Assembly (NCBI GenBank): GCA_964016885.1
Contig: OZ024743.1
Location: 14,942,001-15,006,000, forward strand
Direction of reading: 5' to 3'
DNA length: 64,000 nt
Origin: Eledone cirrhosa
Taxonomy: Eukaryota
Shown here: piece by piece, positions 922-57,993 of the stretch
Numbering within the stretch: the first letter of the stretch is position 1
How the letters are laid out: each line of letters begins with the position of its first letter
Notes under the pieces: generated by a model
Told to the model about the DNA's origin: nothing
Database searches by the model: none
What the model saw: the letters and a program-made list of their open reading frames with translations, nothing else
Program-made: the position numbers and the translations under genes

Positions 922-1010
<89 letters not shown>

Positions 1011-1024
1011 TTTTAATATAGATG

Positions 1025-1075
1025 AGATTCTACAGGACTAGAACTGTTTCATTCATTAGAAATCATCAGGAATCT
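1025..1075 (-). ncRNA. Type I hammerhead ribozyme (inverted pLTR copy)
   Basis: Reverse complement of 7254-7304. Confidence 0.8.
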
Positions 1076-1678
1076 GGGTATCGAAAAATAAAAATGGTAT
1101 TTATAGGTCTCTACAAGTGGTAGGAGAGGGTGGGGAGTGGGATGGGTGCAGGTCATTGGTTGATAGAAAAGGGAATTCATTAAAAGCTAATTCTACAAAG
1201 CTATAGTTTATTTTTATTTATTTATGTTATTAGAGTAACAAGGAGAGACAGAATTCTATAAACAGGTTCCGGATGGCATACCAATCCTTGTCATTAAGTT
1301 TCTCTTAAGCTAACAGATGTCTATAAAATCAGTGGGGCGGTCAGTCATGGTCGATAGAATTAAAGAAAAGGGAGATTCTTTAAAAGCTAAAATCATTAAG
1401 GTTCTACTAAGTGACAAAGGTCTAGAGAATTCTGCAGACAGATTCAAAATACTGAGTGCATATCTTACTATTATCTTCGAACTTCTCTTAAACTAATCAA
1501 CTATATGCCAAAAATCAACAGACACATTCACAAAAAAACAAAAAAACAAAAAAACATACTCACTCACACACTTACGCGCAACCATAAACACACACACAAA
1601 CACATATACACACATAAAAACACACACACATATATAAAAATATATATTCATATACATACACACACATACACACATACA

Positions 1679-3836
1679 TTAAAAACACTCATCAGACGTA
1701 CCGACGAGTTCATCAAGCGAATTAGATGGAGGGCCTTCTTCCTCGACAACCCTGATGTAGCATCTACCCATGATGAGAAGTTCGGCTTCAAAACGAATAA
1801 GACACCACCCACCAACAGCCTACTCCAACCATTTGAAGAAGACCTCTTCAAGATGATCAAGGATATTAAATTCCATAGAGCCACCACACCATTCCAGGCC
1901 TACGTAAATGCCGAATTACGGAATATAAAAAAATCCCCTAATCTTTATGTCTCCTCCGATAAAACCAAAAACGTTTATGAGGTAGACCCACAGACCTAAA
2001 ATAAGCTGGCAAAAAATCCCCTAATCTTTATGTCTCCTCCGATAAAACCAAAAACGTTTATGAGGTAGACCCACAGACCTACAATAAGCTGGCAAAAAAT
2101 ACCATCACGACCACCTACAAAAAGGTAATAGAGAGGGCACTGACTGAGACAAACGCGGCGGAAAAGAAATCGCCAAGCCCCTTAAATTACATGACCGAAC
2201 CGAACCTTTAAGGGTAAAGAACCCGCACTTTACCCTGAAGGACCATAAGGGAAATTTCCTCAACAAACCATCAGTCAGACTTATCAACCCCACTCGTTCT
2301 GACATCGGCTCTATCAGTAAGAAGATCCTGGATAGAGTTCTACCATCATTGCGGGCAGCCTCACCACTTCCACTCTGGAGTAGAACATCTGAGGCAATTT
2401 CATGGTTCCTAGAATTACCCGATAAACACCACACTCGCTTTCTGCAACTCGACATAGAAAACTACTATGCCTCTATCTCGGAGCCCCTCCTGAAGGACGC
2501 AATTAACTTTGCCAGGAATTTTACCACCATTACCGATGCTGAGCAAGTTATTATCCTCCACGCTCGTAAGACCTTTCTATACCACGATGGATCTTACTGG
2601 ATCAACAAGAAATCTCAGGCCCCATTTGACGTTAGCATGGGGGCGAGTGACTCGGCTGAAATTAGCGACCTTGTGGGCCTGTACATCCTACATAACCTGA
2701 AGAACCTCTTTACCGGCCTAACGGGAGGTTTATACCGAGACGACGGCCTCTTCGCCCTGCATAAGGTTAACCCCAGAACCACCGATGGGTTTCGGAAAAA
2801 CTTAAGCTCTTTCTTCTCTAATCTAGGATTTAGTATAACTATAGATTCTAATTTGACTAGGGCCAACTTCTTAGATGTCACTCTCGACCTAGATACTTCC
2901 CTCTATTACCCGTACCACAAACCTAACGAGTCCCTTAAATATATTAATGTTAATTCAAACCACCCCCAAAACAACACTGATAACCTAGTAAAAAGCGTCT
3001 CTATTAGAATATCTGGCCTCTCCGCCAACAAAGATATTTTTAATGCATCTGCCTCCTACTACAATGACGCCCTCGCCCGTAGCGGATTTAAAGATAAGAT
3101 AACTTACCTAGAAACCACTGCAAGATTGCAGAGGAGGAATAGACATAGGCAGATTAGCTGGTACAACCCTCCCTTCAATAGAGAGGTATCTACTCCGATA
3201 GCTAGGATTTTCTTCACTTTACTGAAATTACACTTCTCCATACAACATAGGTACTACACCATCTTTAATAAGAACACTATAAGACTGTCTTACTCCACCA
3301 CACCTAACCTAGCTAGGAATATAGCCAACCACAATTCTAAATTAAATAAGCCAACCACCTCCGAAACCAATCCCCGGACTGGGGCTCTATGTAATTGCCT
3401 AAATAAGGAAGCATGCCCACTTGAAAACAAATGCCTCACAAATGACATCGTATACAAATGCGATGTCATCTCAGGCACCGAGGATTGCAAAAAAGCTTAC
3501 ATCGGCATGACCTCCAACAACTTTAAGACCCGTTGGTATGCCCATACCCACTCCTTCAGTAGACCGGATAAATCAAATCAGACAACACTCGCCTCCTACG
3601 TTTGGGACCTCAAAAGGAACTCCACCCCCTTCACGCTTAAATGGAAAATACTCCAGTAAGCGCGCTCTTACAACGGAGGACAAAAGTGCTGCGACCTTTG
3701 TATTTCAGAGAGCTACGAAATTTTATTCGCCAAGGGCCCGCTACTGAACAAACTCTCTGAACACTGCCCGAACTGCATGCACAAGAACTTTGCAACTTTC
3801 AAACACTTTAAGCCAGTGTTAAAGCCCGATGGCTAA
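1679..3836 (+). pseudogene. PLE reverse transcriptase / GIY-YIG endonuclease, disrupted
   Basis: RT motifs LQLDIENYY, SMGASDSAEISDL, LYRDDG, NFLDVTL; CNC..K..CPL linker; IVYKC...AYIGMT..FKTRW (GIY-YIG). Broken by an 83-bp tandem duplication (1928-2093) and an in-frame TAA at 3657-3659; the frame then continues to TAA at 3834-3836. Confidence 0.93.
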
Positions 3837-4009
3837 AAACGACCTCCTCCTATTGGCCCCTATACCTCCTCCCCACCCTACCCCCACCCTTCCTCAACCT
3901 GAAATACGGCCACTGTGGTTATGTGAGTACCTCTTTCGTATCTACATTTTCTGCCTGTAGAGGTGTCTTTATGTGCCTGCGTATATGCGTATATTTATTG
4001 AGTACCTAT

Positions 4010-6650
<2,641 letters not shown>

Positions 6651-7253
6651 TATGTGTGTATGTGTGTGTATGTATATGAATATATATTTTTATATATGTG
6701 TGTGTGTTTTTATGTGTGTATATGTGTTTGTGTGTGTGTTTATGGTTGCGCGTAAGTGTGTGAGTGAGTATGTTTTTTTGTTTTTTTGTTTTTTTGTGAA
6801 TGTGTCTGTTGATTTTTGGCATATAGTTGATTAGTTTAAGAGAAGTTCGAAGATAATAGTAAGATATGCACTCAGTATTTTGAATCTGTCTGCAGAATTC
6901 TCTAGACCTTTGTCACTTAGTAGAACCTTAATGATTTTAGCTTTTAAAGAATCTCCCTTTTCTTTTCAATTCTATCGACCATGACTGACCCCCCCACTGA
7001 TTTTATAGACATCTGTTAGCTTAAGAGAAACTTAATGACAAGGATTGGTATGCCATCCGGAACCTGTTTATAGAATTCTGTCTCCCCTTGTTACTCTAAT
7101 AACATAAATAAATAAAAATAAACTATAGCTTTGTAGAATTAGCTTTTAATGAATTCCCTTTTCTATCAACCAATGACCTGCACCCATCCCACTCCCCACC
7201 CTCTCCTACCACTTGTAGAGACCTATAAATACAATTTTTATTTTTCGATACCC

Positions 7254-7304
7254 AGATTCCTGATGATTTCTAATGAATGAAACAGTTCTAGTCCTGTAGA
7301 ATCT
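7254..7304 (+). ncRNA. Type I hammerhead ribozyme in the PLE family-1 pLTR
   Basis: AGATTC-CTGATGA-tTTC taat GAAt-GAAAC-AG ttctagtc CT-GTA-GAATCT: 6-bp stem I, canonical core, GUA site; U.U at the base of stem II. Confidence 0.82.
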
Positions 7305-7625
7305 CATCTATATTAAAACTTTTATACTCTGCTATGTATTGAGTACCTTACTTACTGTGGTTACCTCCGATTCAACCCGGAATAACGTATATATATATAT
7401 ATATATATAGAATGAGTGAGTGAAAGTTGAGGAGAAGGCTAACAGAGAGAGAGACTGCTAGAAAGGGTAAAAACGAACAGACGAGTGTGTAATTGTTTTC
7501 TCGCGCGGTCTTGACCAAGCTGGTATGGACATTTTTTCTCTCTCTCTCTTTCGTCTGCGACTTCACAAAACTTATGTTTACCGAATTCGTAGACCAGACC
7601 CCTTTATCTTCTTCTTCTCTCTTTA

Positions 7626-10600
7626 GATCTTAGAGTCTAAACTTATCTACGGAACAGGTTTGATTTTGAAATTTAAATGTGTCTAAACATCACGGCCCTT
7701 TGGCAATACAGTTCGTCTCCGTTGATTTATTATTTTAAATCGATGTGGACAAACTGTAGTATAATAATTAGTATGCTTCAATCTGGCTAAACTTTTCTTT
7801 TGCAATATATATACAGATGTGTTGGTATCTGTGTTTTATCACTTACATATTAATTTATACACTGCTCAGGGGATTTCATCATTCGAGCTGATTCCATTGT
7901 AAAAGAATTCATTACCTTATTAATTTTAACTGCTCCTAGTTTGAGCTGCAAACCGTCCCATATATACGACTGTTATTTCTAGCAGTACGGTTATGAGACT
8001 AGTTAGATACTGTAAAGCCATGTGCGCCACGCAGTCTTTTAAATTATTTAGAAGTGAAGCATATCAATTTGTCTCTGGATGTTTACTGAGGAGTGCGGGA
8101 CATGACATTCCTACACTTTTTTAACTCGAAACATATTTGGATCTTAAAGTCTAAACTTATCTACGGAACAGGTTTGATTTTGAAATTTAAATGTGTCTAA
8201 ACATCACGGCCCTTTGGCAATACAGTTCGTCTCCGTTGATTTATTATTTTAAATCGATGTGGACAAACTGTAGTATAATAATTAGTATGCTTCAATCTGG
8301 CTAAACTTTTCTTTTGCAATATATATACAGATGTGTTGGTATCTGTGTTTTATCACTTACATATTAATTTGTACACTGCTCAGGGGATTTCCTCATTCGA
8401 GCTGATTCCATTGTAAAAGAATTCATTACCTTATTAATTTTAACTGCTCCTAGTTTGAGCTGCAAACCGTCCCATATATACGACTGTTATTTCTAGCAGT
8501 ACGGTTATGAGACTAGTTAGATACTGTAAAGCCATGTGCGCCACGCAGTCTTTTAAATTATTTAGAAGTGAAGCATATCAATTTGTCTCTGGATGTTTAC
8601 TGAGGAGAGCGGGACATGATATTCCTACACTTTTTTAACTCGAAACATATTTGGATCTTAAAGTCTAAACTTATCTACGGAAGAGGTTTGATTTTGAAAT
8701 TTAAATGTGTCTAAACATCACGGCCCTTTGGCAATACAGTTCGTCTCCGTTGATTTATTATTTTAAATCGATGTGGACAAACTGTAGTATAATAATTAGT
8801 ATGCTTCAATCTGGCTAAACTTTTCTTTTGCAATATATATACAGATGTGTTGGTATCTGTGTTTCATCACTTACATATTAATTTATACACTGCTCAGGGG
8901 ATTTCCTCATTCGAGCTGATTCCATTGTAAAAGAATTCATTACCTTATTAATTTTAACTGCTCCTAGTTCGAGCTGCAAACCGTCCCATATATACGACTG
9001 TTATTTCTAGCAGTACGGTTATGAGACTAGTTAGATACTGTAAAGCCATGTGCGCCACGCAGTCTTTTAAATTATTTAGAAGTGAAGCATATCAATTTGT
9101 CTCTGGATGTTTACTGAGGAGTGCGGCACATGATATTCCTACACTTTTTTAACTCGAAACATATTTGGATCTTAAAGTCTAAACTTATCTACGGAACAGG
9201 TTTGATTTTGAAATTTAAATAGTCTAAACATCACGGCCCTTTGGCAATACAGTTCGTCTCCGTTGATTTATTATTTTAAATCGATGTGGACAAACTGTAG
9301 TATAATAATTAGTATGCTTCAATCTGGCTAAACTTTTCTTTTGCAATATATATACAGATGTGTTGGTATCTGTGTTTCATCACTTACATATTAATTTATA
9401 CACTGCTCAGGGGATTTCCTCATTCGAGCTGATTCCATTGTAAAAGAATTCATTACCTTATTAATTTTAACTGCTCCTAGTTTGAGCTGCAAACCGTCCC
9501 ATATATACGACTGTCATTTCTAGCAGTACGGTTATGAGACTAGTTAGATACTGTAAAGCCATGTGCGCCACGCAGTCTTTGAAATTATTTAGAAGTGAAG
9601 CATATCAATTTGTCTCTGGATGTTTACTGAGGAGGGCGGGACATGATATTCTTACACTTTTTTAACTCGAAACATATTTGGATCTTAAAGTCTAAACTTA
9701 TCTACGGAACAGGTTTGATTTTGAAATTTAAATGTGTCTAAACATCACGGCCCTTTTGCAATACAGTTCGTCTCCGTTGATTTATTATTTTAAATCGATG
9801 TGGACAAACTGTAGTATAATAATTAGTATGCTTCAATCTGGCTAAACTTTTCTTTTGCAATATATATACAGATGTGTTGGTATCTGTGTTTTATCACTTA
9901 CATATTAATTTGTACACTGCTCAGGGGATTTCCTCATTCGAGCTGATTCCATTGTAAAAGAATTCATTACCTTATTAATTTTAACTGCTCCTAGTTTGAG
10001 CTGCAAACCGTCCCATATATACGACTGTTATTTCTAGCAGTACGGTTATGAGACTAGTTAGATACTGTAAAGCCATGTGCGCCACGCAGTCTTTTAAATT
10101 ATTTAGAAGTGAAGCATATCAATTTGTCTCTGGATGTTTACTGAGGAGAGCGGGACATGATATTCCTACACTTTTTTAACTCGAAACATATTTGGATCTT
10201 AAAGTCTAAACTTATCTACGGAACAGGTTTGATTTTGAAATTTAAATGTGTCTAAACATCACGGCCCTTTGGCAATACAGTTCGTCTCCGTTGATTTATT
10301 ATTTTAAATCGATGTGGACAAACTGTAGTATAATAATTAGTATGCTTCAATCTGGCTAAACTTTTCTTTTGCAATATATATACAGATGTGTTGGTATCTG
10401 TGTTTCATCACTTACATATTAATTTATACACTGCTCAGGGGATTTCCTCATTGGAGCTGATTCCATTGTAAAAGAATTCATTACCTTATTAATTTTAACT
10501 GCTCCTAGTTCGAGCTGCAAACCGTCCCATATATACGACTGTTATTTCTAGCAGTACGGTTATGAGACTAGTTAGATACTGTAAAGCCATGTGCGCCACG

Positions 10601-10940
10601 CAGTCTTTTAAATTATTTAGAAGTGAAGCATATCAATTTGTCTCTGGGTGTTTACTGAGGAGAGCGGGACATGATATTCCTACACTTTTTTAACTCGAAA
10701 CATATTTGGATCTTAAAGTCTAAACTTATCTACGGAACAGGTTTGATTTTGAAATTTAAATGTGTCTAAACATCACGGCCCTTTGGCAATAGAGTTCGTC
10801 TCCGTAAATTTATTATTTTAAATCGATGTGGACAAACTGTAGTATAATAATTAGTATGCTTCATTCTGGCTAAACTATTCTTTTGCAATATATATACAGA
10901 TGTGTTGGTATCTGTGTTTCATCACTTACATATTAATTTA
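7626..10940 (+). repeat. Tandem array, 514-bp unit x ~6.45, one hammerhead per unit (retrozyme-like)
   Basis: Unit starts (GATCTT) at 7626, 8140, 8654, 9168, 9681, 10195 and 10709; few substitutions; non-coding; ends in (TA)n. Confidence 0.95.
8078..8205 (+). ncRNA. Type I hammerhead with long stem III (further copies at 8592-8719, 9106-9232, 9619-9746, 10133-10260, 10647-10774)
   Basis: GATGTTTA-CTGAGGA-G(A/T/G)G...CTC-GAAAC-ATATTTGGAT...ATTTAAATGT-GTC-TAAACATC: 8-bp stem I, canonical core, GUC site. Confidence 0.82.
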
Positions 10941-10951
10941 TATATATATAT

Positions 10952-13135
10952 AACGAAGGAAATGTGGTAAGGAACCAGATGGACCATAACGCACCAGAGT
11001 ACTCAATACTTAGGGAGGTAGAGTGGGTAATAGGAACACGTTTAAGTCCGACGGCTGAGCTCGAGCCGTTTCGACGGCTATTCCTGGACTAAATCAACAT
11101 TTTTATCGTGGTATTAAACAGCCGAACTTTTCAAGCAGAAATATCATTCTCCACGCCAGGAAGACAGTCCTCCTTTCCGACAACTCCAAGTGGATAAAGA
11201 AAGCTCCCGACTCCCCCTTCGACGTCAGTATGGTCGCGACCGACTCGGCTGAGGTGACCGATCTTATAGGAGTATTCCTACTACATAAACTCACCGAAAT
11301 GTTTACTGCACTCGGTGGTGAATTGTACCCCAAGGATGGGCTCCTTACCCTCAAAGGGTACAACCCCAGTAGTACAGACCGGGTCCGTAAACAACAAATC
11401 AACTTCTTCCGAGACTGGGGATTTAAAATCACCCTACAAATGTCACTAACCCGAGTCAATTTCCTGGACTTTACCCTCAATCTCGAAAATGATCTGTACT
11501 ACCCATACAGGAAAAAAACGACAAACTTCACTACATTCACCGCCGCTCTAACCATCCTAGAAACATCACCAATAACCTGGTTAAAAACATCTTCCTGGCG
11601 CATATCTCGTGTGTCAGCTAATGAGCAGATATTCGATGAACATGAGCTCATTACAACCAGGCCTTCAAGTGAAGCGGCTTTCGGGAGGAAAACTCCTTTT
11701 ATTCAGCTTCCCTTAGCAGAACCAGCAGGCGACGGCGCCGCTCACGCCTCCTTACGTGGTTCAACGCTCCCCACAATGCCATGGTGGCAATACCAATCAG
11801 GAAAACCTTCTTTAGGCTCCTCGAAAAACACTTCCCACCACAATACCACTACCACAACATAATCAACAAAAACACTATCAAACTCTCCTAGAGCACCACA
11901 CCCAATTTCGCAGAAAATATCGCCTCCTCAAACAACAAGAAACACAACTCCTATGGAATAAACAACCTAGACATTAGTGGAGAGCCGACCAAGAGGTGCA
12001 ACTGCTGGATATATCTACGTGCCCCCTCAACAACAGATGGCGAGAACATAACCTGATCTACCAATGCAAGGTGAGGACGGAAAACTCCAGCAAAGCCTAA
12101 ATAGGATTAACTGCTTGTGACTTTACGACCCGGCTCTACCAACACCGACATACGTTCCGAAACCCAAACCGCGACATTCCGCTACACTTTCGGGCAACAT
12201 CTGGGACATCCAAGATAATAACATAACATACAATCTTACTTGCAGCTTACTGTCCAAGGCTAACTTCTACACGGGAGGACGCCGTCCGTGTAACTTACGC
12301 TCGGAGGAAACAATATAAATGTTGTTTACGAAGGACCAACTCCTAAACGAAAAAGACGAATTTGTAACTGCATGTAAACACCGATTGCGTAGGACTTAGC
12401 TCGCCCTCAAACCTCCTCATGACCCGAGTGGGTATACAATGACTGCAATATCATACTTTTCCCCACTTGACCAACAAGTTAGGGGAAACCCCAGCATATA
12501 TAAGTATATTTACTTCTTTCATTTTTCCCTTTATCTCTTCTTATCACTTCCTTCGACTCCCTCTCCTCTTCCTTTTCCTTTTTCCTCTCTCCCCCACCCT
12601 GAGGACGCCCATTGGGCTTCTTTAGCCTCAGTACCCCACCGCAGTAAATTCTATATAGCATTAGCCGAAAACGCAATACCAGCTAAAAATATAGCAGCTG
12701 CTTTAAACTCTAGAGATGTTTTTATTATTTTTTACTATTTAATTTTTTTATTATTTTTATTTATTATCTTTTAACCTCAATTTATTAACCATTTAATTTT
12801 ATAACGTCCGACTCTCAGATTTTTCGGCTGCTTTCTGCCTAGATTAATTTCATACACACTCCTTAGACTATGCTGTATAGAACTCACATTCAACGCTTGA
12901 CCGCCTCCACCCACTCCCTCATTGTTCTTCAGGCAAGTTCAGCCAAAGCCGAAATGAAAAATGTAATTGTGATTACAAGAAATTTTGACCAATACTTTTG
13001 ACAACTACAATCTTCTCATATAAGGAATTACCTTCTTGAAAATTTCGGCTATTTAACACCACGCTAAAAATTCTAATTTAGTCAAGAAAAAGCCGTCGAA
13101 ACGGCTTGAGCTCTGCCGTCGGGGTTAAACATTTT

Positions 13136-13140
<5 letters not shown>
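10952..13140 (+). mobile_element. Penelope-like element family 2, 5'-truncated and decayed, with inverted 5' pLTR piece (10952-11135)
   Basis: Frameshifted RT (FDVSMVATDSAEVTDLIG, LYPKDG, VNFLDFTL) and GIY-YIG remnants at ~11140-12435, homologous to the ORF at 2349-3659; the pLTR end at 13030-13140 is mirrored at 11030-11135. Confidence 0.88.
13031..13124 (+). ncRNA. Variant hammerhead (U3/A8 core, long stem II)
   Basis: CTTC-TTGAAAA-..CGGCT...AGCCG.C-GAAAC-GGC ttgagctct GCC-GTC-GGGG; homologues on the minus strand at 13196-13290 and 11047-11135. Confidence 0.65.
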
Positions 13141-13180
<40 letters not shown>

Positions 13181-13184
<4 letters not shown>

Positions 13185-14453
13185 AAAAAGTATGACCCCG
13201 ATGGCAGAGCTCAAGCCGTTTCGACGGCTATTTCTGGACTAAATTAGAATGTTTAGCCTGGTGAATAAATAGCCGAACTTGTCAAGAGGGTACTTCCTTA
13301 TATGGAAAGATTGTAGTTGTCAAAAGGATTGGTTAACATTTGTTGTAAACCAAATAAGTCTATCATGGCATTTGGTGGGAGGTAGGGGGGAGCTGAAATT
13401 GCCTGTAGAACAATAGACGAGTGAGTGGCGCGGTCAAGCGTTGAAAGTGATATGTATACAGCAGATACTAAGGATAGTGTATGAAGTGGAGGAGGGAGGT
13501 AATAGAATAGGTAAATCGAATGAGAGTAGGAGACGATAAAATATAATAGAAAGAAATAAAAAAATATATAAAATTAGATAGTGAGAAATGAACAAAAAAA
13601 TCACAATGCTATCTTACAATTACAGGTTAATAAGTTGAGAATAGAAAAAAACTTGTAGAAATTGAGTAGTAACAACATTAAAGGGGTTTAACCCAACTGC
13701 TATAAGTAAAACGTATTCGGTAAATTCTATCTTTAAAATACAGGGGTGAGGGAACTGATGCTACAGAGCCAGATGCGCTGCATCAGGTTAGACGAAAGGG
13801 GTAAATCAGACGAGGAAGAAAATAGGGAGTGGAAGGAAGTGATAGGATGAGACATGGGAAAGAAGAAGAAAAAGAGGAAAAGAAAAGAGATACATCTACC
13901 TATGTACGCTGGGGTTCCCCTAACTTATTCGGCAAGGGGGGGGGGGGGGTATCAGCCCTTGTCTACCCACCCGAGTGTTTATGGGGTTTGAGGGCGAGGT
14001 AAGTCCTACGCAATATTTGTTTGCATGCGGTTACCAGTTCGTCTTTCTTGTTTAGGAGTTGGTCCTTCGAAAACAGCATTTGTAATGTATCCTCCGAGCA
14101 TAAGTTACACGGACGGCATCCTCCCGTGTAAGAGATTGTTCTGGACAGTAAGCTCCAAGTGAGATTGTAGGTTATATTATAATCTCGGAGGTCGCAGATG
14201 TGGCCCGAAAGTGTAGTGGCATGTCGCCGGACTGGGTTTCGGAAAGTATGTCGGTGTTGGTAGAGCGGGGTCTTGAAGTCACACGCGGTTAATCCTATAT
14301 AAGCTTTGTTGTAGGTGCCCAGAAATAGCCGTCGAAACGGCTTGAGCTCTGCCGTCGGGGTCACACTTTTTCCCTATTTCCCACTCTACTACCCTAAGTA
14401 TTGAGTACTCTCGTGCGTTATAGTCCATCTGGTTCCTTTCCGCACTTCCATTG
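13181..14453 (-). mobile_element. Penelope-like element family 2, 3' fragment (GIY-YIG end + pLTR) with inverted tail at 14320-14453
   Basis: ORF 13963..14364 contains [13 protein letters not shown]...HRHTF...CNLCSE...LLNKKDELVTAC; homologous to 12090-13140; tail-to-tail with the previous element across (TA)n 13139-13181. Confidence 0.88.
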
Positions 14454-14539
14454 TTATATATATATATGTGTGTGTGTGTATATGTATGTATATATATATA
14501 TGTGTTTATATATATATATATGTATATATATGTACATAT

Positions 14540-14590
<51 letters not shown>

Positions 14591-14602
<12 letters not shown>

Positions 14603-16961
14603 TATAGACATAGAATATTCGAAAATATTCTGTATGTTTATAATAAACATTTTGAAGACCTAATCGCTATAGAATAGAATACGTCACGTATTACAATTAG
14701 ATTCTCGATAAAAGCAAGGGAAGTAATCTACGCGTTTCATTCTTGTTAGAATTCATCAGGACTACATATCCAGTGCTTTTATCGAGAATGACACAGCTAG
14801 AGACTTATAGAATACTTAGCTGTGTACAGGAACTGGTTTGAAAGAGCGGTTGCCGGTCCGGCAGAAATTAGAAATTGGAATAAATGCTCTGAAATAGCGA
14901 TATATATATGAATATAGACATAGAATATTCGAAAATATTCTGTATGTTTATAATAAACATTTTGAAGACCTAATCGCTATAGAATAGAATACGTCACGTA
15001 TTACAATTAGATTCTCGATAAAAGCAAGGGAAGTAATCTACGCGTTTCATTCTTGTTAGAATTCATCAGGACTACATATCCAGTGCTTTTATCGAGAATG
15101 ACACAGCTAGAGACTTATAGAATACTTAGCTGTGTACAGGAACTGGTTTGAAAGAGCGGTTGCCGGTCCGGCAGAAATTAGAAATTGGAATAAATGCTCT
15201 GAAATAGCGATATATATATGAATATAGACATAGAATATTCGAAAATATTCTGTATGTTTATAATAAACATTTTGAAGACCTAATCGCTATAGAATAGAAT
15301 ACGTCACGTATTACAATTAGATTCTCGATAAAAGCAAGGGAAGTAATCTACGCGTTTCATTCTTGTTAGAATTCATCAGGACTACATATCCAGTGCTTTT
15401 ATCGAGAATGACACAGCTAGAGACTTATAGAATACTTAGCTGTGTACAGGAACTGGTTTGAAAGAGCGGTTGCCGGTCCGGCAGAAATTAGAAATTGGAA
15501 TAAATGCTCTGAAATAGCGATATATATATGAATATAGACATAGAATATTCGAAAATATTCTGTATGTTTATAATAAACATTTTGAAGACCTAATCGCTAT
15601 AGAATAGAATACGTCACGTATTACAATTAGATTCTCGATAAAAGCAAGGGAAGTAATCTACGCGTTTCATTCTTGTTAGAATTCATCAGGACTACATATC
15701 CAGTGCTTTTATCGAGAATGACACCTAATTTCTGCCGGACCGGCAACCGCTCTTTCAAACCAGTTCCTGTACACAGCTAAGTATTCTATAAGTCTCTAGC
15801 TGTGTCATTCTCGATAAAAGCACTGGATATGTAGTCCTGATGAATTCTAACAAGAATGAAACGCGTAGATTACTTCCCTTGCTTTTATCGAGAATCTAAT
15901 TGTAATACGTGACGTATTCTATTCTATAGCGATTAGGTCTTCAAAATGTTTATTATAAACATACAGAATATTTTCGAATATTCTATGTCTATATTCATAT
16001 ATATATCGCTATTTCAGAGCATTTATTCCAATTTCTAATTTCTGCCGGACCGGCAACCGCTCTTTCAAACCAGTTCCTGTACACAGCTAAGTATTCTATA
16101 AGTCTCTAGCTGTGTCATTCTCGATAAAAGCACTGGATATGTAGTCCTGATGAATTCTAACAAGAATGAAACGCGTAGATTACTTCCCTTGCTTTTATCG
16201 AGAATCTAATTGTAATACGTGACGTATTCTATTCTATAGCGATTAGGTCTTCAAAATGTTTATTATAAACATACAGAATATTTTCGAATATTCTATGTCT
16301 ATATTCATATATATATCGCTATTTCAGAGCATTTATTCCAATTTCTAATTTCTGCCGGACCGGCAACCGCTCTTTCAAACCAGTTCCTGTACACAGCTAA
16401 GTATTCTATAAGTCTCTAGCTGTGTCATTCTCGATAAAAGCACTGGATATGTAGTCCTGATGAATTCTAACAAGAATGAAACGCGTAGATTACTTCCCTT
16501 GCTTTTATCGAGAATCTAATTGTAATACGTGACGTATTCTATTCTATAGCGATTAGGTCTTCAAAATGTTTATTATAAACATACAGAATATTTTCGAATA
16601 TTCTATGTCTATATTCATATATATATCGCTATTTCAGAGCATTTATTCCAATTTCTAATTTCTGCCGGACCGGCAACCGCTCTTTCAAACCAGTTCCTGT
16701 ACACAGCTAAGTATTCTATAAGTCTCTAGCTGTGTCATTCTCGATAAAAGCACTGGATATGTAGTCCTGATGAATTCTAACAAGAATGAAACGCGTAGAT
16801 TACTTCCCTTGCTTTTATCGAGAATCTAATTGTAATACGTGACGTATTCTATTCTATAGCGATTAGGTCTTCAAAATGTTTATTATAAACATACAGAATA
16901 TTTTCGAATATTCTATGTCTATATTCATATATATATCGCTATTTCAGAGCATTTATTCCAA

Positions 16962-16969
<8 letters not shown>
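14591..16969. repeat. Palindromic tandem array, 310-bp unit: ~3.65 copies (hammerhead on -) then 4 copies (hammerhead on +), inversion at 15724/15725
   Basis: Left units at 14600, 14910, 15220, 15530; right units at 15725, 16035, 16345, 16655 are their reverse complement; no differences seen between copies by eye; (TA)n on both sides. Confidence 0.96.
15831..15873 (+). ncRNA. Minimal type I hammerhead (also + 16141-16183, 16451-16493, 16761-16803; - 14723-14765, 15033-15075, 15343-15385, 15653-15695)
   Basis: GTAGTC-CTGATGA-ATTC taacaa GAAT-GAAAC-GC-GTA-GATTAC; palindromic stem III (ACGCGT); stem I extended by the perfect 16-bp helix ATTCTCGATAAAAGCA/TGCTTTTATCGAGAAT. Confidence 0.92.
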
Positions 16970-17025
<56 letters not shown>

Positions 17026-17040
17026 ATGTATATATATATG

Positions 17041-17075
<35 letters not shown>

Positions 17076-17769: not shown

Positions 17770-17946
17770 ATATCGGTAGAGGGTCAGACGCCATGCTTTG
17801 ACGAATAGAGTTACGGCCCTTGCCATTCTGAGTTCAAATTCTGCCAATGTTAACTTTGCCTTTCATCCTTACGGGGTCGATAAAATAAAGTACTAGTAAT
17901 GTACTGGGTAATTGCTGACCTTGTGCCAAAAGTAGAAACAATTATT
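17770..17946 (+). mobile_element. tRNA-derived SINE
   Basis: B-box GAGTTCAAATTC, body TTTGCCTTTCATCCTTACGGGGTCGATAAAATAAAGTAC, and tail shared with the other copies in the window. Confidence 0.8.
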
Positions 17947-22602: not shown

Positions 22603-24490
22603 ATAAAGGACGTAAAATAAGAAAATATTTTTTTTAAAAAATTTAAAAAAAATTTTTTTCTTACTTAAATTTTCACTCCAACTAATTAGTCTCTGCAATG
22701 GGATAAAGACAGTTACGTAATCCAACTGTCGAGAATTCATTGCGTCATCAGGAAGTCTATTCTCATCTGTGCGCTTATGTTAGTTGATATATTAAATTAT
22801 CTATATTTATCTCCAAATCACTGATTTGTCGAGCAAACTTGTCAAAACCACTTCTAAAAAAGATTTTTTTTGGGGTGTTAGTAGGCGTCAGTCATCTTAC
22901 CATCCCATTCCTTCTAACTAGCCTCTGTGTCACGTGATTGATTCTTTAGAATCGGCCATTTGACTTGAAGCAGTGAGAATTTCGGTACATAGAATCCAGT
23001 CCTCGCAAGCTGTTCGATCTACCGAATTATTATTATTTTTATATGAGCCGCCAGTGTCCGCGCATTGCCTGGAGACTTAACTGAGAATAGACTTCCTGAT
23101 GACGCAATGAATTCTCGACAGTTGGATTACGTAACTGTCTTTATCCCATTGCAGAAACTAATTAGTTGGAGTGAAAATTTAAGTAAGAAAAAAAATTTTT
23201 TTAAATTTTTTTAAAAAAATATTTTCTTATTTTACGTCCTTTATATTATTGTTCTGCATTCTCCTGCATTGAACCACCTAGGTACTATGACATAACCTGT
23301 GTATTTGCTGGCATGGGCGTGCATCTGTGCGCTTATGTTAGTTGATATATTAAATTATCTATATTTATCTCCAAATCACTGATTTGTCGAGCAAACTTGT
23401 CAAAACCACTTCTAAAAAAGATTTTTTTTTGGGGTGTTAGTAGGCGTCAGTCATCTTACCATCCCATTCCTTCTAACTAGCCTCTGTGTCACGTGATTGA
23501 TTCTTTAGAATCGGCCATTTGACTTGAAGCAGTGAGAATTTCGGTACATAGAATCCAGTCCTCGCAAGCTGTTCGATCTACCGAATTATTATTATTTTTA
23601 TATGAGCCGCCAGTGTCCGCGCATTGCCTGGAGACTTAACTGAGAATAGACTTCCTGATGACGCAATGAATTCTCGACAGTTGGATTACGTAACTGTCTT
23701 TATCCCATTGCAGAAACTAATTAGTTGGAGTGAAAATTTAAGTAAGAAAAAAAAAAAAAAAAAAAAAAAATTTTTTTTAATTTTTTTAAAAAAATATTTT
23801 CTTATTTTACGTCCTTTATATTATTGTTCTGCATTCTCCTGCATTGAACCACCTAGGTACTATGACATAACCTGTGTATTTGCTGGCATGGGCGTGCATC
23901 TGTGCGCTTATGTTAGTTGATATATTAAATTATCTATATTTATCTCCAAATCACTGATTTGTCGAGCAAACTTGTCAAAACCACTTCTAAAAAAGATTTT
24001 TTTTGGGGTGTTAGTAGGCGTCAGTCATCTTACCATCCCATTCCTTCTAACTAGCCTCTGTGTCACGTGATTGATTCTTTAGAATCGGCCATTTGACTTG
24101 AAGCAGTGAGAATTTCGGTACATAGAATCCAGTCCTCGCAAGCTGTTCGATCTACCGAATTATTATTATTTTTATATGAGCCGCCAGTGTCCGCGCATTG
24201 CCTGGAGACTTAACTGAGAATAGACTTCCTGATGACGCAATGAATTCTCGACAGTTGGATTACGTAACTGTCTTTATCCCATTGCAGAAACTAATTAGTT
24301 GGAGTGAAAATTTAAGTAAGAAAAAAATTTTTTTTAAATTTTTTTAAAAAAATATTTTCTTATTTTACGTCCTTTATATTATTGTTCTGCATTCTCCTGC
24401 ATTGAACCACCTAGGTACTATGACATAACCTGTGTATTTGCTGGCATGGGCGTGCATCTGTGCGCTTATGTTAGTTGATATATTAAATTA

Positions 24491-24497
<7 letters not shown>
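22603..24497 (+). repeat. Tandem array, ~558-bp unit x ~3.1 (22764-24497), preceded by an inverted partial unit (22603-22765); one hammerhead per unit
   Basis: Unit starts (CATCTGTGCG) at 22764, 23322, 23897, 24455; length varies at a poly-A/T run; (TA)n flanks. Confidence 0.95.
23091..23172 (+). ncRNA. Type I hammerhead with long stem II (also 23650-23731 and 24224-24305; core-mutant inverted copy at ~22675-22756)
   Basis: ACTTC-CTGATGA-cGCAATG..GACAGTT..AACTGTC..CATTGCa-GAAAC-TAATTA-GTT-GGAGT; palindromic stem III ACTAATTAGT; GUU site. Confidence 0.8.
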
Positions 24498-54788: not shown

Positions 54789-56447
54789 TTCTCTTTTGTT
54801 TTAATGTTATTAAGGAACATCACGAGAGTCTTCAATTCACCTTGGAGGAAGCAGAATTGCTGGGCCGGGATCCCAGTGATGTAGTGCACTGCTGGACCTG
54901 GTCGGCTCTTCGCTCGTGTTGCCTCAAGGATTGCCAACCTAGTGTGACCCCAAGCCAATGGAGCTAGAGCAAAGAATATATATATATACATATATATATA
55001 TATTTATATATATATATATATTTTTCAGATATAAAATAATGTCAGATCAAGTAAATGATGTGGGAACAAGTGAGAGGCAATTTTCAAACGCAGCTGTGTT
55101 CAGTACTCAAAGTGAACAAATTAAGTCGTGGAAGGGATACTGCTTAAGAAATCCCTCCCTAATTTCTCTCTTTTTCTCTCACACTTGGCTCACTCTACCT
55201 CTCTTTCTTTCTCCTTCTCTCTACTTCTCTTTGCTCCTCCACTTTCTTTCTCTCTAGTTAATACAGGAGACTCTACACCTAGCAGCCAGTTGATCTAACG
55301 CCCGTTCATTCTGAATCATCCAAATAATCCCTCTTTTCTTCTGTCATTACATTTAACTTCCTCTCTAACCACCATTCAATTCTTCTCACTCTTAATGTCA
55401 AGTCTCTAAAAACGCATTGCTAATCGTCTTTTACATGCTGCAAACAAGTAGAAGTACTTTAAGGAGATCAGAACATCATTCTGGTCCACATTGTTAGCAT
55501 CAGAATATAGATCACCTTCGTTCCAACAAAACATCTAAAACAAAGCTTAATTAATATTAATAATTTCATGGCTTAAGCACCGAAATCAATTTTTCCCGAT
55601 TTATCAAACATCCGGTGTGACGCGATCGATAATAAAATGAGTCTTCTGTCGTCGTCGGTTAAGTTTGTTAAAGCAGAGATATTATAACATACATCTCAAA
55701 ACATTATAAAATACACCTTTTATATTTCAAAGGTTTACATTTTTTAAATGAAGAAAAACAATATCTATAATATATTAATTTACATTTAAAACCCACAATA
55801 CTCTTCCAATCAGAAGCACAATACATCAATTTCACCCTCACGAGGTCGATAAAATAAAGTACCAGAAATGCACTGTGTAATTGCTGGCCTTGTGCCTAAG
55901 TAGAAACAATTAACTTTGTAATTTCATTTAATTGTCGACAATGTTTTTGTCATTTCTTGTTAAAATGTCCTACTTCCAATAATTATGTTTATTTGGTTTC
56001 ATTTACTAGCCTATGCTTGTGAGTGTTTGTGTAGATGTGTTTGTGTTTGTGTGCGTGCGTGTTTGTGTATCCATACATGCATATGCGTATATATACCTTA
56101 TATATATATATACATATATGCAATGGTATATATATTACATTAGATGCGTGAGGGGTTTCATTTTGGTGGCACTATAGTAAAATATATGTAGTGGAAATGG
56201 GTCGTTTCAGTTTGGTAAATGTTGCCATAATTTACAACACCTATATCTAGTTCACTAAAACTCTAGTGCTTGTATGTGTGACAATATATATATATATACA
56301 TATATATATAATGTTATAATTCAGGAAGGTCATACTGACAATAAAACACACGCACCTATTGGATTTCACTTAAATTTATTAAAAATTTCCGGTTGGTTGT
56401 TTGGTTCGATACCCGGATGATTGTCTATATATTCTCGGCTGTTGTCG

Positions 56448-56493
56448 GGTCGTCCTGATGAGGACCAGTTAAGTTTGAAATGCATCGACGATT
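56448..56493 (+). ncRNA. Minimal type I hammerhead of an older ~312-bp repeat family (truncated second core at 56767-56793)
   Basis: GGTCGTC-CTGATGA-GGAC cagttaa GTTT-GAAAT-GC-ATC-GACGATT; palindromic stem III ATGCAT; AUC site. Confidence 0.82.
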
Positions 56494-56884
56494 ATCCTCT
56501 TTGCTTCTGCTGGACACCACCAGGTGGCGATAGCCTCCGCAGTTGTTTTAATAGCTACGGATTTCTCTAGAAATACGGAATTCCAATACATATCTCTATG
56601 CAGCTATGCTCGAAGGTAAATCCTAAGTCTATGCTATTAAAAGGTGAACCAACTTAAACCGCTTCATATGCAAATGAGATTAATCACCTCATTTACATAG
56701 ACGAGAAAACTATATATACTGGCCTTTTTGCTAAGCCCAGCAGTCACACGAGTGTGAGGGATCATCCTGATGAGTACCATTTAAGTTCGAAATTTAAACT
56801 CCACTATATATATATATATATAGAGGAGCTTAAATTTCGAACTATATATATATAGATGCATAGACAGATGGATAGACAAATATA

Positions 56885-57432: not shown

Positions 57433-57484
57433 TATATACGTGTGTGTGTGTGCATATAGTATATACGTCATATTATAAATGAGG

Positions 57485-57785
57485 TATTCCAATACATATC
57501 TGTATACAGCTGTGCTCGAAGCAAAATTCTTATTCTATCCTATTATAAGTTGAGTCAACTTATACAGCTCTATATGCCAATGAGATTAATCACCTCATTT
57601 ACAGAGACGAGAAAGCTATACATTCTCAACTGTTTTCATGTCCAGCAGTTGCAAGAGCGAGACGGATCCTCCTCACGAGGACGCATTCAGTTCAAAATGC
57701 ATCCACGATTGTCTCCTTAGCCGCCGGTGCTTTTGAATAGCTACTGCTTTCTAAATGTTTATTTATAAAAATACCGTATTTCATA
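57485..57785 (+). mobile_element. Diverged, circularly permuted monomer of the ~312-bp hammerhead repeat
   Basis: 57485-57690 aligns to ~56578-56790 and 57665-57780 to ~56448-56580; core decayed to CTCACGA...AAAAT-GC-ATC. Confidence 0.7.
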
Positions 57786-57792
57786 TATATAT

Positions 57793-57850
<58 letters not shown>

Positions 57851-57853
<3 letters not shown>

Positions 57854-57993
57854 AAAAAGGTCAGAACGACGCCGACGGCAGAGCCCTGCCGTTGGCGTTC
57901 TGACTCTTTTCCTACTACCCACTCTACTAGCCAAGGTATCGAGTAGTCTGGTGTGTTATGGTCCATCTGGTTCCTTACCACACTTCCTTCGTT
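57851..57993. mobile_element. Fold-back mini-remnant of the PLE family-2 pLTR in (TA)n
   Basis: AGGAAAA..GTCAGAACG..CCGACGGCAG agcc CTGCCGTTGGCGTTCTGAC..TTTTCCT hairpin followed by the family-2 tail ending CTTCGTT-(AT)n. Confidence 0.78.

Follow-up and report, generated by a model that had tools for sequence, protein, structure and literature searches.

An inverted, tailed array of identical 310-nt hammerhead units with the features of a Penelope-like insertion

The window, as the whole analysed stretch of 64 kb is called here, consists of repeat-rich animal-type DNA with many (TA)n tracts, LINE-like reverse transcriptase (RT) ORFs and pieces of Penelope-like elements (PLEs). Within it lies an array of two outward-facing arms built from a 310-nt unit; its features are collected in Table 1 together with those of its neighbours. 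Unit phases are numbered from 15725 (phase 0) with a period of 310 nt. Published work is cited in square brackets for the passages that were available.

Table 1 Features of the array and of neighbouring elements; coordinates are those of the window, and a dot marks features without strand.
Feature	Coordinates	Strand	Remarks
Left target flank, (TA)n-rich microsatellite	14455..14589	.	Also flanks PLE piece 13182-14454
Left arm, 1135 nt, 3.66 units	14590..15724	sense on minus	Phase 77 (5') to 281 (3')
Head-to-head (5'-5') junction	15724..15725	.	No microhomology, no extra bases
Right arm, 1245 nt, 4 units + 5 nt	15725..16969	sense on plus	Phase 0 to 4
One-sided 3' extension, 33 nt	16937..16969	+	33-43 nt allowing for TA ambiguity
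Right target flank, (TA)n/(TG)n microsatellite	16970..17060	.	
Type I hammerhead domain	14701..14789	-	Cleavage after 14729 on minus
Type I hammerhead domain	15011..15099	-	
Type I hammerhead domain	15321..15409	-	
Type I hammerhead domain	15631..15719	-	
Type I hammerhead domain	15807..15895	+	Cleavage after 15867; distal 16-bp stem 15807-15822/15880-15895; stem I 15831-15836/15868-15873; core 15837-15843; stem II 15844-15857; GAAA 15858-15861; ACGCGU 15861-15866
Type I hammerhead domain	16117..16205	+	
Type I hammerhead domain	16427..16515	+	
Type I hammerhead domain	16737..16825	+	
Putative Hydra-clade PLE, broken (RT + GIY-YIG)	1009..7388	+	68-nt tail, (TA)n on both sides
558-bp tandem array, 3 units + ~40 nt	22606..24494	+	158-nt inverted arm, 120-nt tail, (TA)n on both sides
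PLE-family pieces, 80-nt tail	680-920; 10953-13137; 13182-14454; ~57852-57992		Short and long 3' ends exactly 80 nt apart
514-bp tandem array, ~6.4 units	7622-10942		3' end in (TA)n; 1-8 substitutions between units

Compared with one circularly repeated 310-nt unit, both arms show 0 mismatches over 2380 nt, which bears out the original prediction of a palindromic array of about 2.4 kb made of identical 310-bp units; the divergent arms, unequal end phases and merging into (TA)n that it had described were likewise found, the 3' ends lying at unit phases 281 (left) and 4 (right) and each running into (TA)n. The longest inverted pair in the array (14590-15724/15802-16936) is 100% complementary over 1135 bp with 77 nt between, the loop of this large inverted repeat being the first 77 nt of the right arm. 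The inverted repeat stops before the flanks, and the left and right flanks are unrelated. The 'short' 3' end of the left arm is the unit's own (AT)5 tract, 10 nt being ambiguous with the target, and the right arm starts 28 nt downstream, in unit phase, of this end. The unit has a GC content of 0.339; no ORF of at least 150 aa and no RT + GIY-YIG ORF was found in the array. A DNA transposon or foldback element was rejected for want of identical inverted termini and of any visible target duplication. A bacterial promoter scan, irrelevant for an animal genome, gave a chance-level result. From its sequence, a read-through transcript of the array could possibly fold into a 1135-bp hairpin, which would also bury the ribozymes.

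A loose hammerhead core pattern matched the window 13 times (shuffles, mean 1.3), with 8 of these matches inside the array, four per strand. Each of the eight comprises a stem I of 6 bp, CUGAUGA, a stem II of 5 bp, GAAA and the palindromic ACGCGU, so that the eight hammerheads foreseen on both strands are present as full core-plus-stem motifs; the anticipated 16-bp extension of stem I is a perfect distal stem, and every one of the four hairpin words quoted earlier for the unit was located. The predicted cleavage site, GUA^, lies after 15867 (+310n), that is, after unit phase 142. One hammerhead motif covers all 8 array copies and 2 PLE copies. With Rfam at the gathering threshold no match was obtained in the window; below the gathering score HH9 alone appeared, with 23 bits and E 0.0025, on the array hammerhead.

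A 321-nt stretch of the array folds with z = -4.0 against shuffles, and the formation probability of stems I and II is 0.85-1.0 in the predicted circle. Cofolding of two hammerheads gave a double-hammerhead form with a 6-bp ACGCGU duplex at -72.7 kcal/mol against 2 x -32.4 (-64.8) kcal/mol, the predicted dimer thus being favoured by 7.9 kcal/mol over two monomers. The motif had been described as a minimal hammerhead of the dimer type with a palindromic ACGCGT stem III. The palindrome and the predicted dimer fold stand, and the label 'minimal' was dropped: in the strict sense it denotes a form without loop 3 [Cervera and de la Pena 2014, PMC4209133], and the array form, its helix III being short and palindromic, is the canonical metazoan type I, which is predicted to work as a dimer.

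Non-LTR retrozymes are non-coding tandems of about 150-450 bp, from dimers to multimers, with GC below 45%. The array has a tandem period of 310 bp, 3.66 + 4.02 units, one type I hammerhead per unit and a GC content below 45%, and it is non-coding; by these sequence criteria it is a non-LTR retrozyme [Cervera and de la Pena 2020, PMC7229834], a known class, and its ribozyme and repeat class are in themselves ordinary. The array is not a PLE itself; it resembles PLE cargo.

The surroundings and ends of the array have the form of a PLE-type insertion: an inverted 5'-truncated copy joined at its 5' end, a one-sided 33-nt tail and (TA)n on both flanks. PLE insertions are known to carry an inverted 5'-truncated copy and, on one side, a tail of 30-40 bp [Craig et al. 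2021, PMC8557442], which the 33-nt one-sided extension and the inverted 5' copy of the array match; Hydra and Naiad PLEs target (TA)n and leave no discernible target-site duplication [PMC8557442]. In vitro, a PLE protein cuts and extends both strands, its RT starts at two adjacent internal RNA sites, which delimit the tail, and uncut RNA is the dominant substrate [Frangieh et al. 2024, PMC11167929].

For comparison, TA-flanked elements were chosen by hand in this one window. The outward layout with a short and a long end occurs in 6 of the 7 others measured, or in 6 of 8 when the 514-bp array is counted, namely in four pieces of one PLE family (80-nt tail), one PLE (68 nt) and one array (120 nt); the neighbouring tails of 68, 80 and 120 nt lie outside the published 30-40-bp range. 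The earlier reading of the array had missed that this layout is, as judged from sequence, the known PLE signature of inverted copy plus tail, common to PLEs in the window.

The PLE at 1009-7388 has an inverted 3' copy at about 1009-1681 (668/672 nt identical) and a hammerhead-like core in each arm, stem III and the 3' side being non-canonical in the scan. Its ORF, intact in appearance, carries RWR (published RWK), DKT, CNCLNKEAC (CxCx5C), CDLC (CxxC) and CMH (CxH), and a GIY-YIG match with E 0.0009, below the Pfam cut-off; the element as a whole is disrupted by duplication, frameshift and stop. The published marks of the Hydra clade are RWK, DKT, a CxCx5C linker, CxxC/CxH, a C-terminal GIY-YIG and a (TA)n target [PMC8557442], and the element is assigned to this clade on the marks listed. 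It is a recent element and also contains an 83-bp internal duplication (1928-2100) and, in the 3' region, a 2.6-kb TA/TG-rich tract (4063-6648).

In the 558-bp array CUGAUGA is present, GAAU replaces GAAA, units differ by 1-2 substitutions and one unit measures 575 bp via a longer A-run; its motif may be a degenerate or unusual ribozyme. The 514-bp array carries a hammerhead-like CUGAGGA...GAAAC...GUC motif and is probably another retrozyme family; no inverted arm was seen at 7622-10942, and the short/long layout is absent there, as it is from the TA-flanked hammerhead element 56311-56805. A CUGAUGA core was not found in the four 80-nt-tail PLE pieces, which have a GC-rich hairpin just upstream of the short end. 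Comparisons of the unit with other element ends in the window exceeded shuffles in 2 of 16 cases (the PLE hammerhead and the AT-rich ~57750-57795), which is no proof of common origin: with the PLE at 1009-7388 the hammerhead and stem II alone are alike (23/28 columns, p 0.005, inflated by the common core), and with two other local PLE ends there was no match.

Further elements of the window include two hammerhead-like motifs 312 bp apart at 56311-56850, the one at 56455 with a palindromic AUGCAU stem III and the one at 56767 degenerate; a diverged related copy lies at 57445-57795, with a weak, AT-rich likeness (p 0.005) between its end and the short 3' end of the 310-nt unit. Two LINE-like pairs (29028-34029/58880-63806 and 34186-40263/43919-49935) are about 95% identical within pairs, contain RVT_1 and adjoin (AAT)n, which suggests microsatellite targeting by other retroelements too; one pair also carries endonuclease and zf-RVT domains. 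A dispersed repeat of about 180 bp (17771-17946; copies at ~24957, 26440, 49930, 51553, 51734, 54619 and 55830) is SINE-like and may resemble cephalopod SINEs.

Sequencing runs were compared by means of a 310-nt query (15492-15801) that holds every unit position once together with the junction. It matched at word shares of 0.50-0.89 in 20 of the 24 listed runs (16 studies, 17 organism labels), and contigs of four of these 20 runs (X1, X4, X6 and X9) were aligned to the stretch. No RNA run stood among the 24 listed, which has no bearing on expression. The spread over 17 organism labels likeliest reflects trace carry-over of a very abundant repeat, or related hosts; movement of the unit between unrelated hosts is highly improbable. 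Pattern scans of metagenome contigs gave no loci.

In X1, 591 contigs fell on the unit, 277 of them less than 99% alike, so that the family is mixed, with three common variants; contigs with variants and TA-joined ends fit a high-copy family, contig number not being copy number. The catalytic core is free of these common variants; the base of stem II holds one of them and loop II another. At two variant sites the array has letters that account for a minority of the summed depth in X1 (26% and 22%), and it has them at all 8 positions per site, X1 possibly being another individual. Together with the 0 mismatches, these minority letters throughout the array point to one clonal template. At 15844 (right-arm coordinate) the X1 majority variant makes the first stem II pair U-U, the array keeping the paired form; U-U at this pair is also seen in the motif of the neighbouring PLE, and a U-U-type stem II pair has been described for an axolotl hammerhead family [PMC7229834].

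Ten X1 contigs stop at the left-end phase and then continue in TA repeats, which suggests a recurrent 3' end; the stops at this short site could also be expanded internal (AT)n tracts. The right-end phase was absent among the 6 of 29 X1 loose ends that were listed. X4, X6 and X9 gave one contig each of 331-340 nt with ordinary head-to-tail joints, 0, 1 and 3 differences and depths of 10-34; closed contigs of about 340 nt are equally compatible with a tandem or a circle.

None of the contigs listed from the four runs crosses the 15724/15725 junction or spans the array, and contigs, which drop rare forms, show presence, not absence. This leaves room for an assembly artefact, in which chimeric or fold-back reads joined opposite copies at 15724/15725 or polishing homogenised the units, the more so as PLE structures of such a layout are noted to trouble assemblies [PMC8557442]. 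Such an artefact is nevertheless very unlikely: the inverted repeat ends before the flanks, with a 77-nt offset and a one-sided tail; older elements with diverged arms have the same layout, and its being common to 6 of the 8 other elements, including the Hydra-type PLE, makes a fold-back artefact hard to sustain. The X1-minority letters in the array, rather than the family consensus, speak against polishing, with the reservation that X1 may be another individual.

The array is probably young: a (TA)n-targeting PLE, most plausibly of the Hydra clade, would have inserted this high-copy non-LTR retrozyme by means of its RT/endonuclease. Sequence anatomy, unit identity, end phases, the layout common to neighbouring PLEs and the abundance of the family in one run are observed, the dimer fold is predicted, and the enzyme, the template, the timing and any expression of the array are inferred. 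Elements of the type found at 1009-7388 are candidates for the partner; that this copy is broken and is alike to the unit only across the hammerhead and stem II weighs against it. That the insertion was a two-ended one of the PLE type is held with good confidence. A source array would have been transcribed into multimeric RNA. Since the hammerheads would cut well only as dimers, uncut multimers and circles could coexist. A PLE protein would then have broken a (TA)n tract, and both DNA 3' ends would have primed reverse transcription, at two priming sites that differ by 33-43 nt in unit phase, TA microhomology amounting to 2-10 nt at each; cDNAs of 1135 and 1245 nt would have been joined at their truncated ends, without microhomology, and the joining would leave outward-facing arms with a tail on one side.

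The monomer or dimer might instead have been inserted first and amplified in place at the DNA level, by unequal crossover, inter-arm gene conversion or fold-back repair. Inverted arms are able to homogenise by conversion, and local amplification is the model suggested for retrozyme tandems generally in a recent preprint [Li, Clavereau and Pollet 2026, 10.64898/2026.07.22.740005]. For the present array this is improbable: both arms would have to have grown separately to about four units with 0 mutations in 2380 nt, and substitutions do separate the units of the arrays at 7622 (1-8) and 22764 (1-2). A fold-back event would, moreover, copy the flank and end exactly, whereas here the tail sets the ends apart and the flanks are unrelated.

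Within the two-ended insertion, the template is restricted by the arm ends, which lie at phases 77, 281, 0 and 4; no arm starts or ends at the cleavage phase 142. Because, in addition, both arms are longer than one unit, the template would be a circle or an uncut multimer, and a cut linear monomer was rejected on the same two grounds. Read as a single RNA, the left arm (77 to 281) is followed, after 28 missing nt, by the right arm (0 to 4), and the whole is an unbroken multimer of 7.8 units whose 5' part is inverted. The template may quite well have been one uncut multimer of about 8 units, twin-primed, with 5' inversion and 28 nt lost; this is our tentative choice. In the 558-bp array the long arm also starts inside the tail, about 80 nt past the short site, so that both tandem arrays with an inverted arm (28 and ~80 nt past the short site) behave alike. 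The chance of both starts falling inside the tail is about 2%, for two cases noticed after the fact. These starts lean towards twin priming on one uncut multimer rather than two circles. Also in favour are the dominance of uncut RNA as PLE substrate in vitro [PMC11167929] and the cleavage in vitro of 1 of 9 retrozyme dimers [10.64898/2026.07.22.740005]. The four 80-nt-tail elements speak against twin priming: in these, the two arms cover a common unit region, and the tail is not where the long arm stops.

It is also possible, if doubtful, that the template was a 310-nt circular RNA, copied for about four turns from each end independently; this is a variant of the two-ended PLE insertion and not additive to it. 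A single circle gives the perfect unit identity and the lack of an end at the cleavage site that are seen in the array; in the predicted circle the hammerhead stems have a probability of at least 0.85, and the weak stem III of the monomer would protect the circle. Coral, mussel and axolotl contain retrozyme circles in abundance, and it has been proposed that RT uses these as templates [PMC7229834]. A circle does not, however, predict what 2 of 2 arrays show, a long arm that measures whole units and a few nt more and ends inside the tail; moreover, once covered by one cDNA it would presumably be a poor template for a second priming. A preferred stop at a protein-binding site on each turn of the circle would mimic the long-arm rule. 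The original prediction of a very recent insertion made by two rolling-circle reverse transcriptions of a circRNA thus holds as regards a recent and clonal insertion that arose by retrotransposition, with outward priming of two cDNAs from (TA)n; as regards a circular template copied twice independently it is not established, and the long arm stopping inside the tail in both arrays fits one uncut multimer better.

Twin priming on an uncut multimer has a wider form, which is conceivable and no firmer than that: retrozyme arrays would be born whole in one step, a PLE protein using the two ends of a (TA)n break to twin-prime a single uncut multimer, and the polymerase on the downstream side stopping, inside the tail, on meeting the upstream one. 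If this were true, the published rolling-circle cycle would be contradicted, since the mobile template would be other than the circle and the unit could spread without ribozyme cleavage, and perfect arrays would be a ruler for the making of inverted repeats and tails by PLEs. As the unit is periodic, circle and multimer templates could be told apart cheaply and quantitatively by end phases across a genome.

Retrozymes, their link to PLEs and the inverted and tailed structure of PLEs are each already published. In the literature covered, which comprised texts free of figures and supplements and few subscription papers, no description was found of an inverted, tailed retrozyme array or of PLE twin priming; the passages of PMC8969392, PMC11722881, PMC8490949 and PMC6431247 contain no such array. 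PLEs have been called a strong candidate for moving retrozymes [PMC7229834]. Their origin from PLEs has been argued from co-occurrence and phylogeny, the mechanism being said to remain to be elucidated, in a text whose passages make no mention of tails, inversions or opposite strands [10.64898/2026.07.22.740005]; the formation of PLE inverted repeats and tails has been called undefined [PMC8557442]. The present locus places a PLE footprint directly on a flawless retrozyme multimer; it bears on which enzyme mobilises animal retrozymes and on retrotransposition versus local DNA amplification as the origin of retrozyme tandem arrays.

Like metazoan non-LTR retrozymes, the array has a non-coding, highly structured unit of about 300 nt with 34% GC, apparently belongs to an abundant family, and carries in each unit a single canonical type I hammerhead whose helix III is short and palindromic. 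Published retrozymes are head-to-tail tandems or monomers [PMC7229834; 10.64898/2026.07.22.740005], whereas the array consists of two outward multimeric arms with a one-sided tail in (TA)n; the word 'inverted' is absent from the main text of PMC7229834, and its sole occurrence in the available text of 10.64898/2026.07.22.740005 is in a reference title. With EN+ PLE insertions, especially of the Hydra clade [PMC8557442, PMC11167929], it shares the inverted truncated copy, the tail, (TA)n and type I hammerheads; unlike EN+ PLEs it has no ORF, both arms are multimers of the 310-nt unit, and the local PLE ends are alike to it only at the hammerhead. In Schistosoma mansoni, hammerhead pairs on opposite strands 100-700 bp apart have been ascribed to truncated PLEs [PMC4209133]; the array hammerheads are similarly close together on opposite strands, but those pairs are single minimal motifs [PMC4209133], unlike the perfect multimeric arms found here. 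In L1, 5' inversion arises by twin priming, both break ends priming on one RNA [Ostertag and Kazazian 2001, as described in PMC2246262]. The two cDNAs of the array, in opposite orientations and proposed to start from both break ends, recall this process. At the inversion point, L1 twin priming entails a small loss; priming in L1 takes place on a poly(A) tail with an AP endonuclease and leaves target-site duplications, whereas priming of the array would have been internal and its target was (TA)n.
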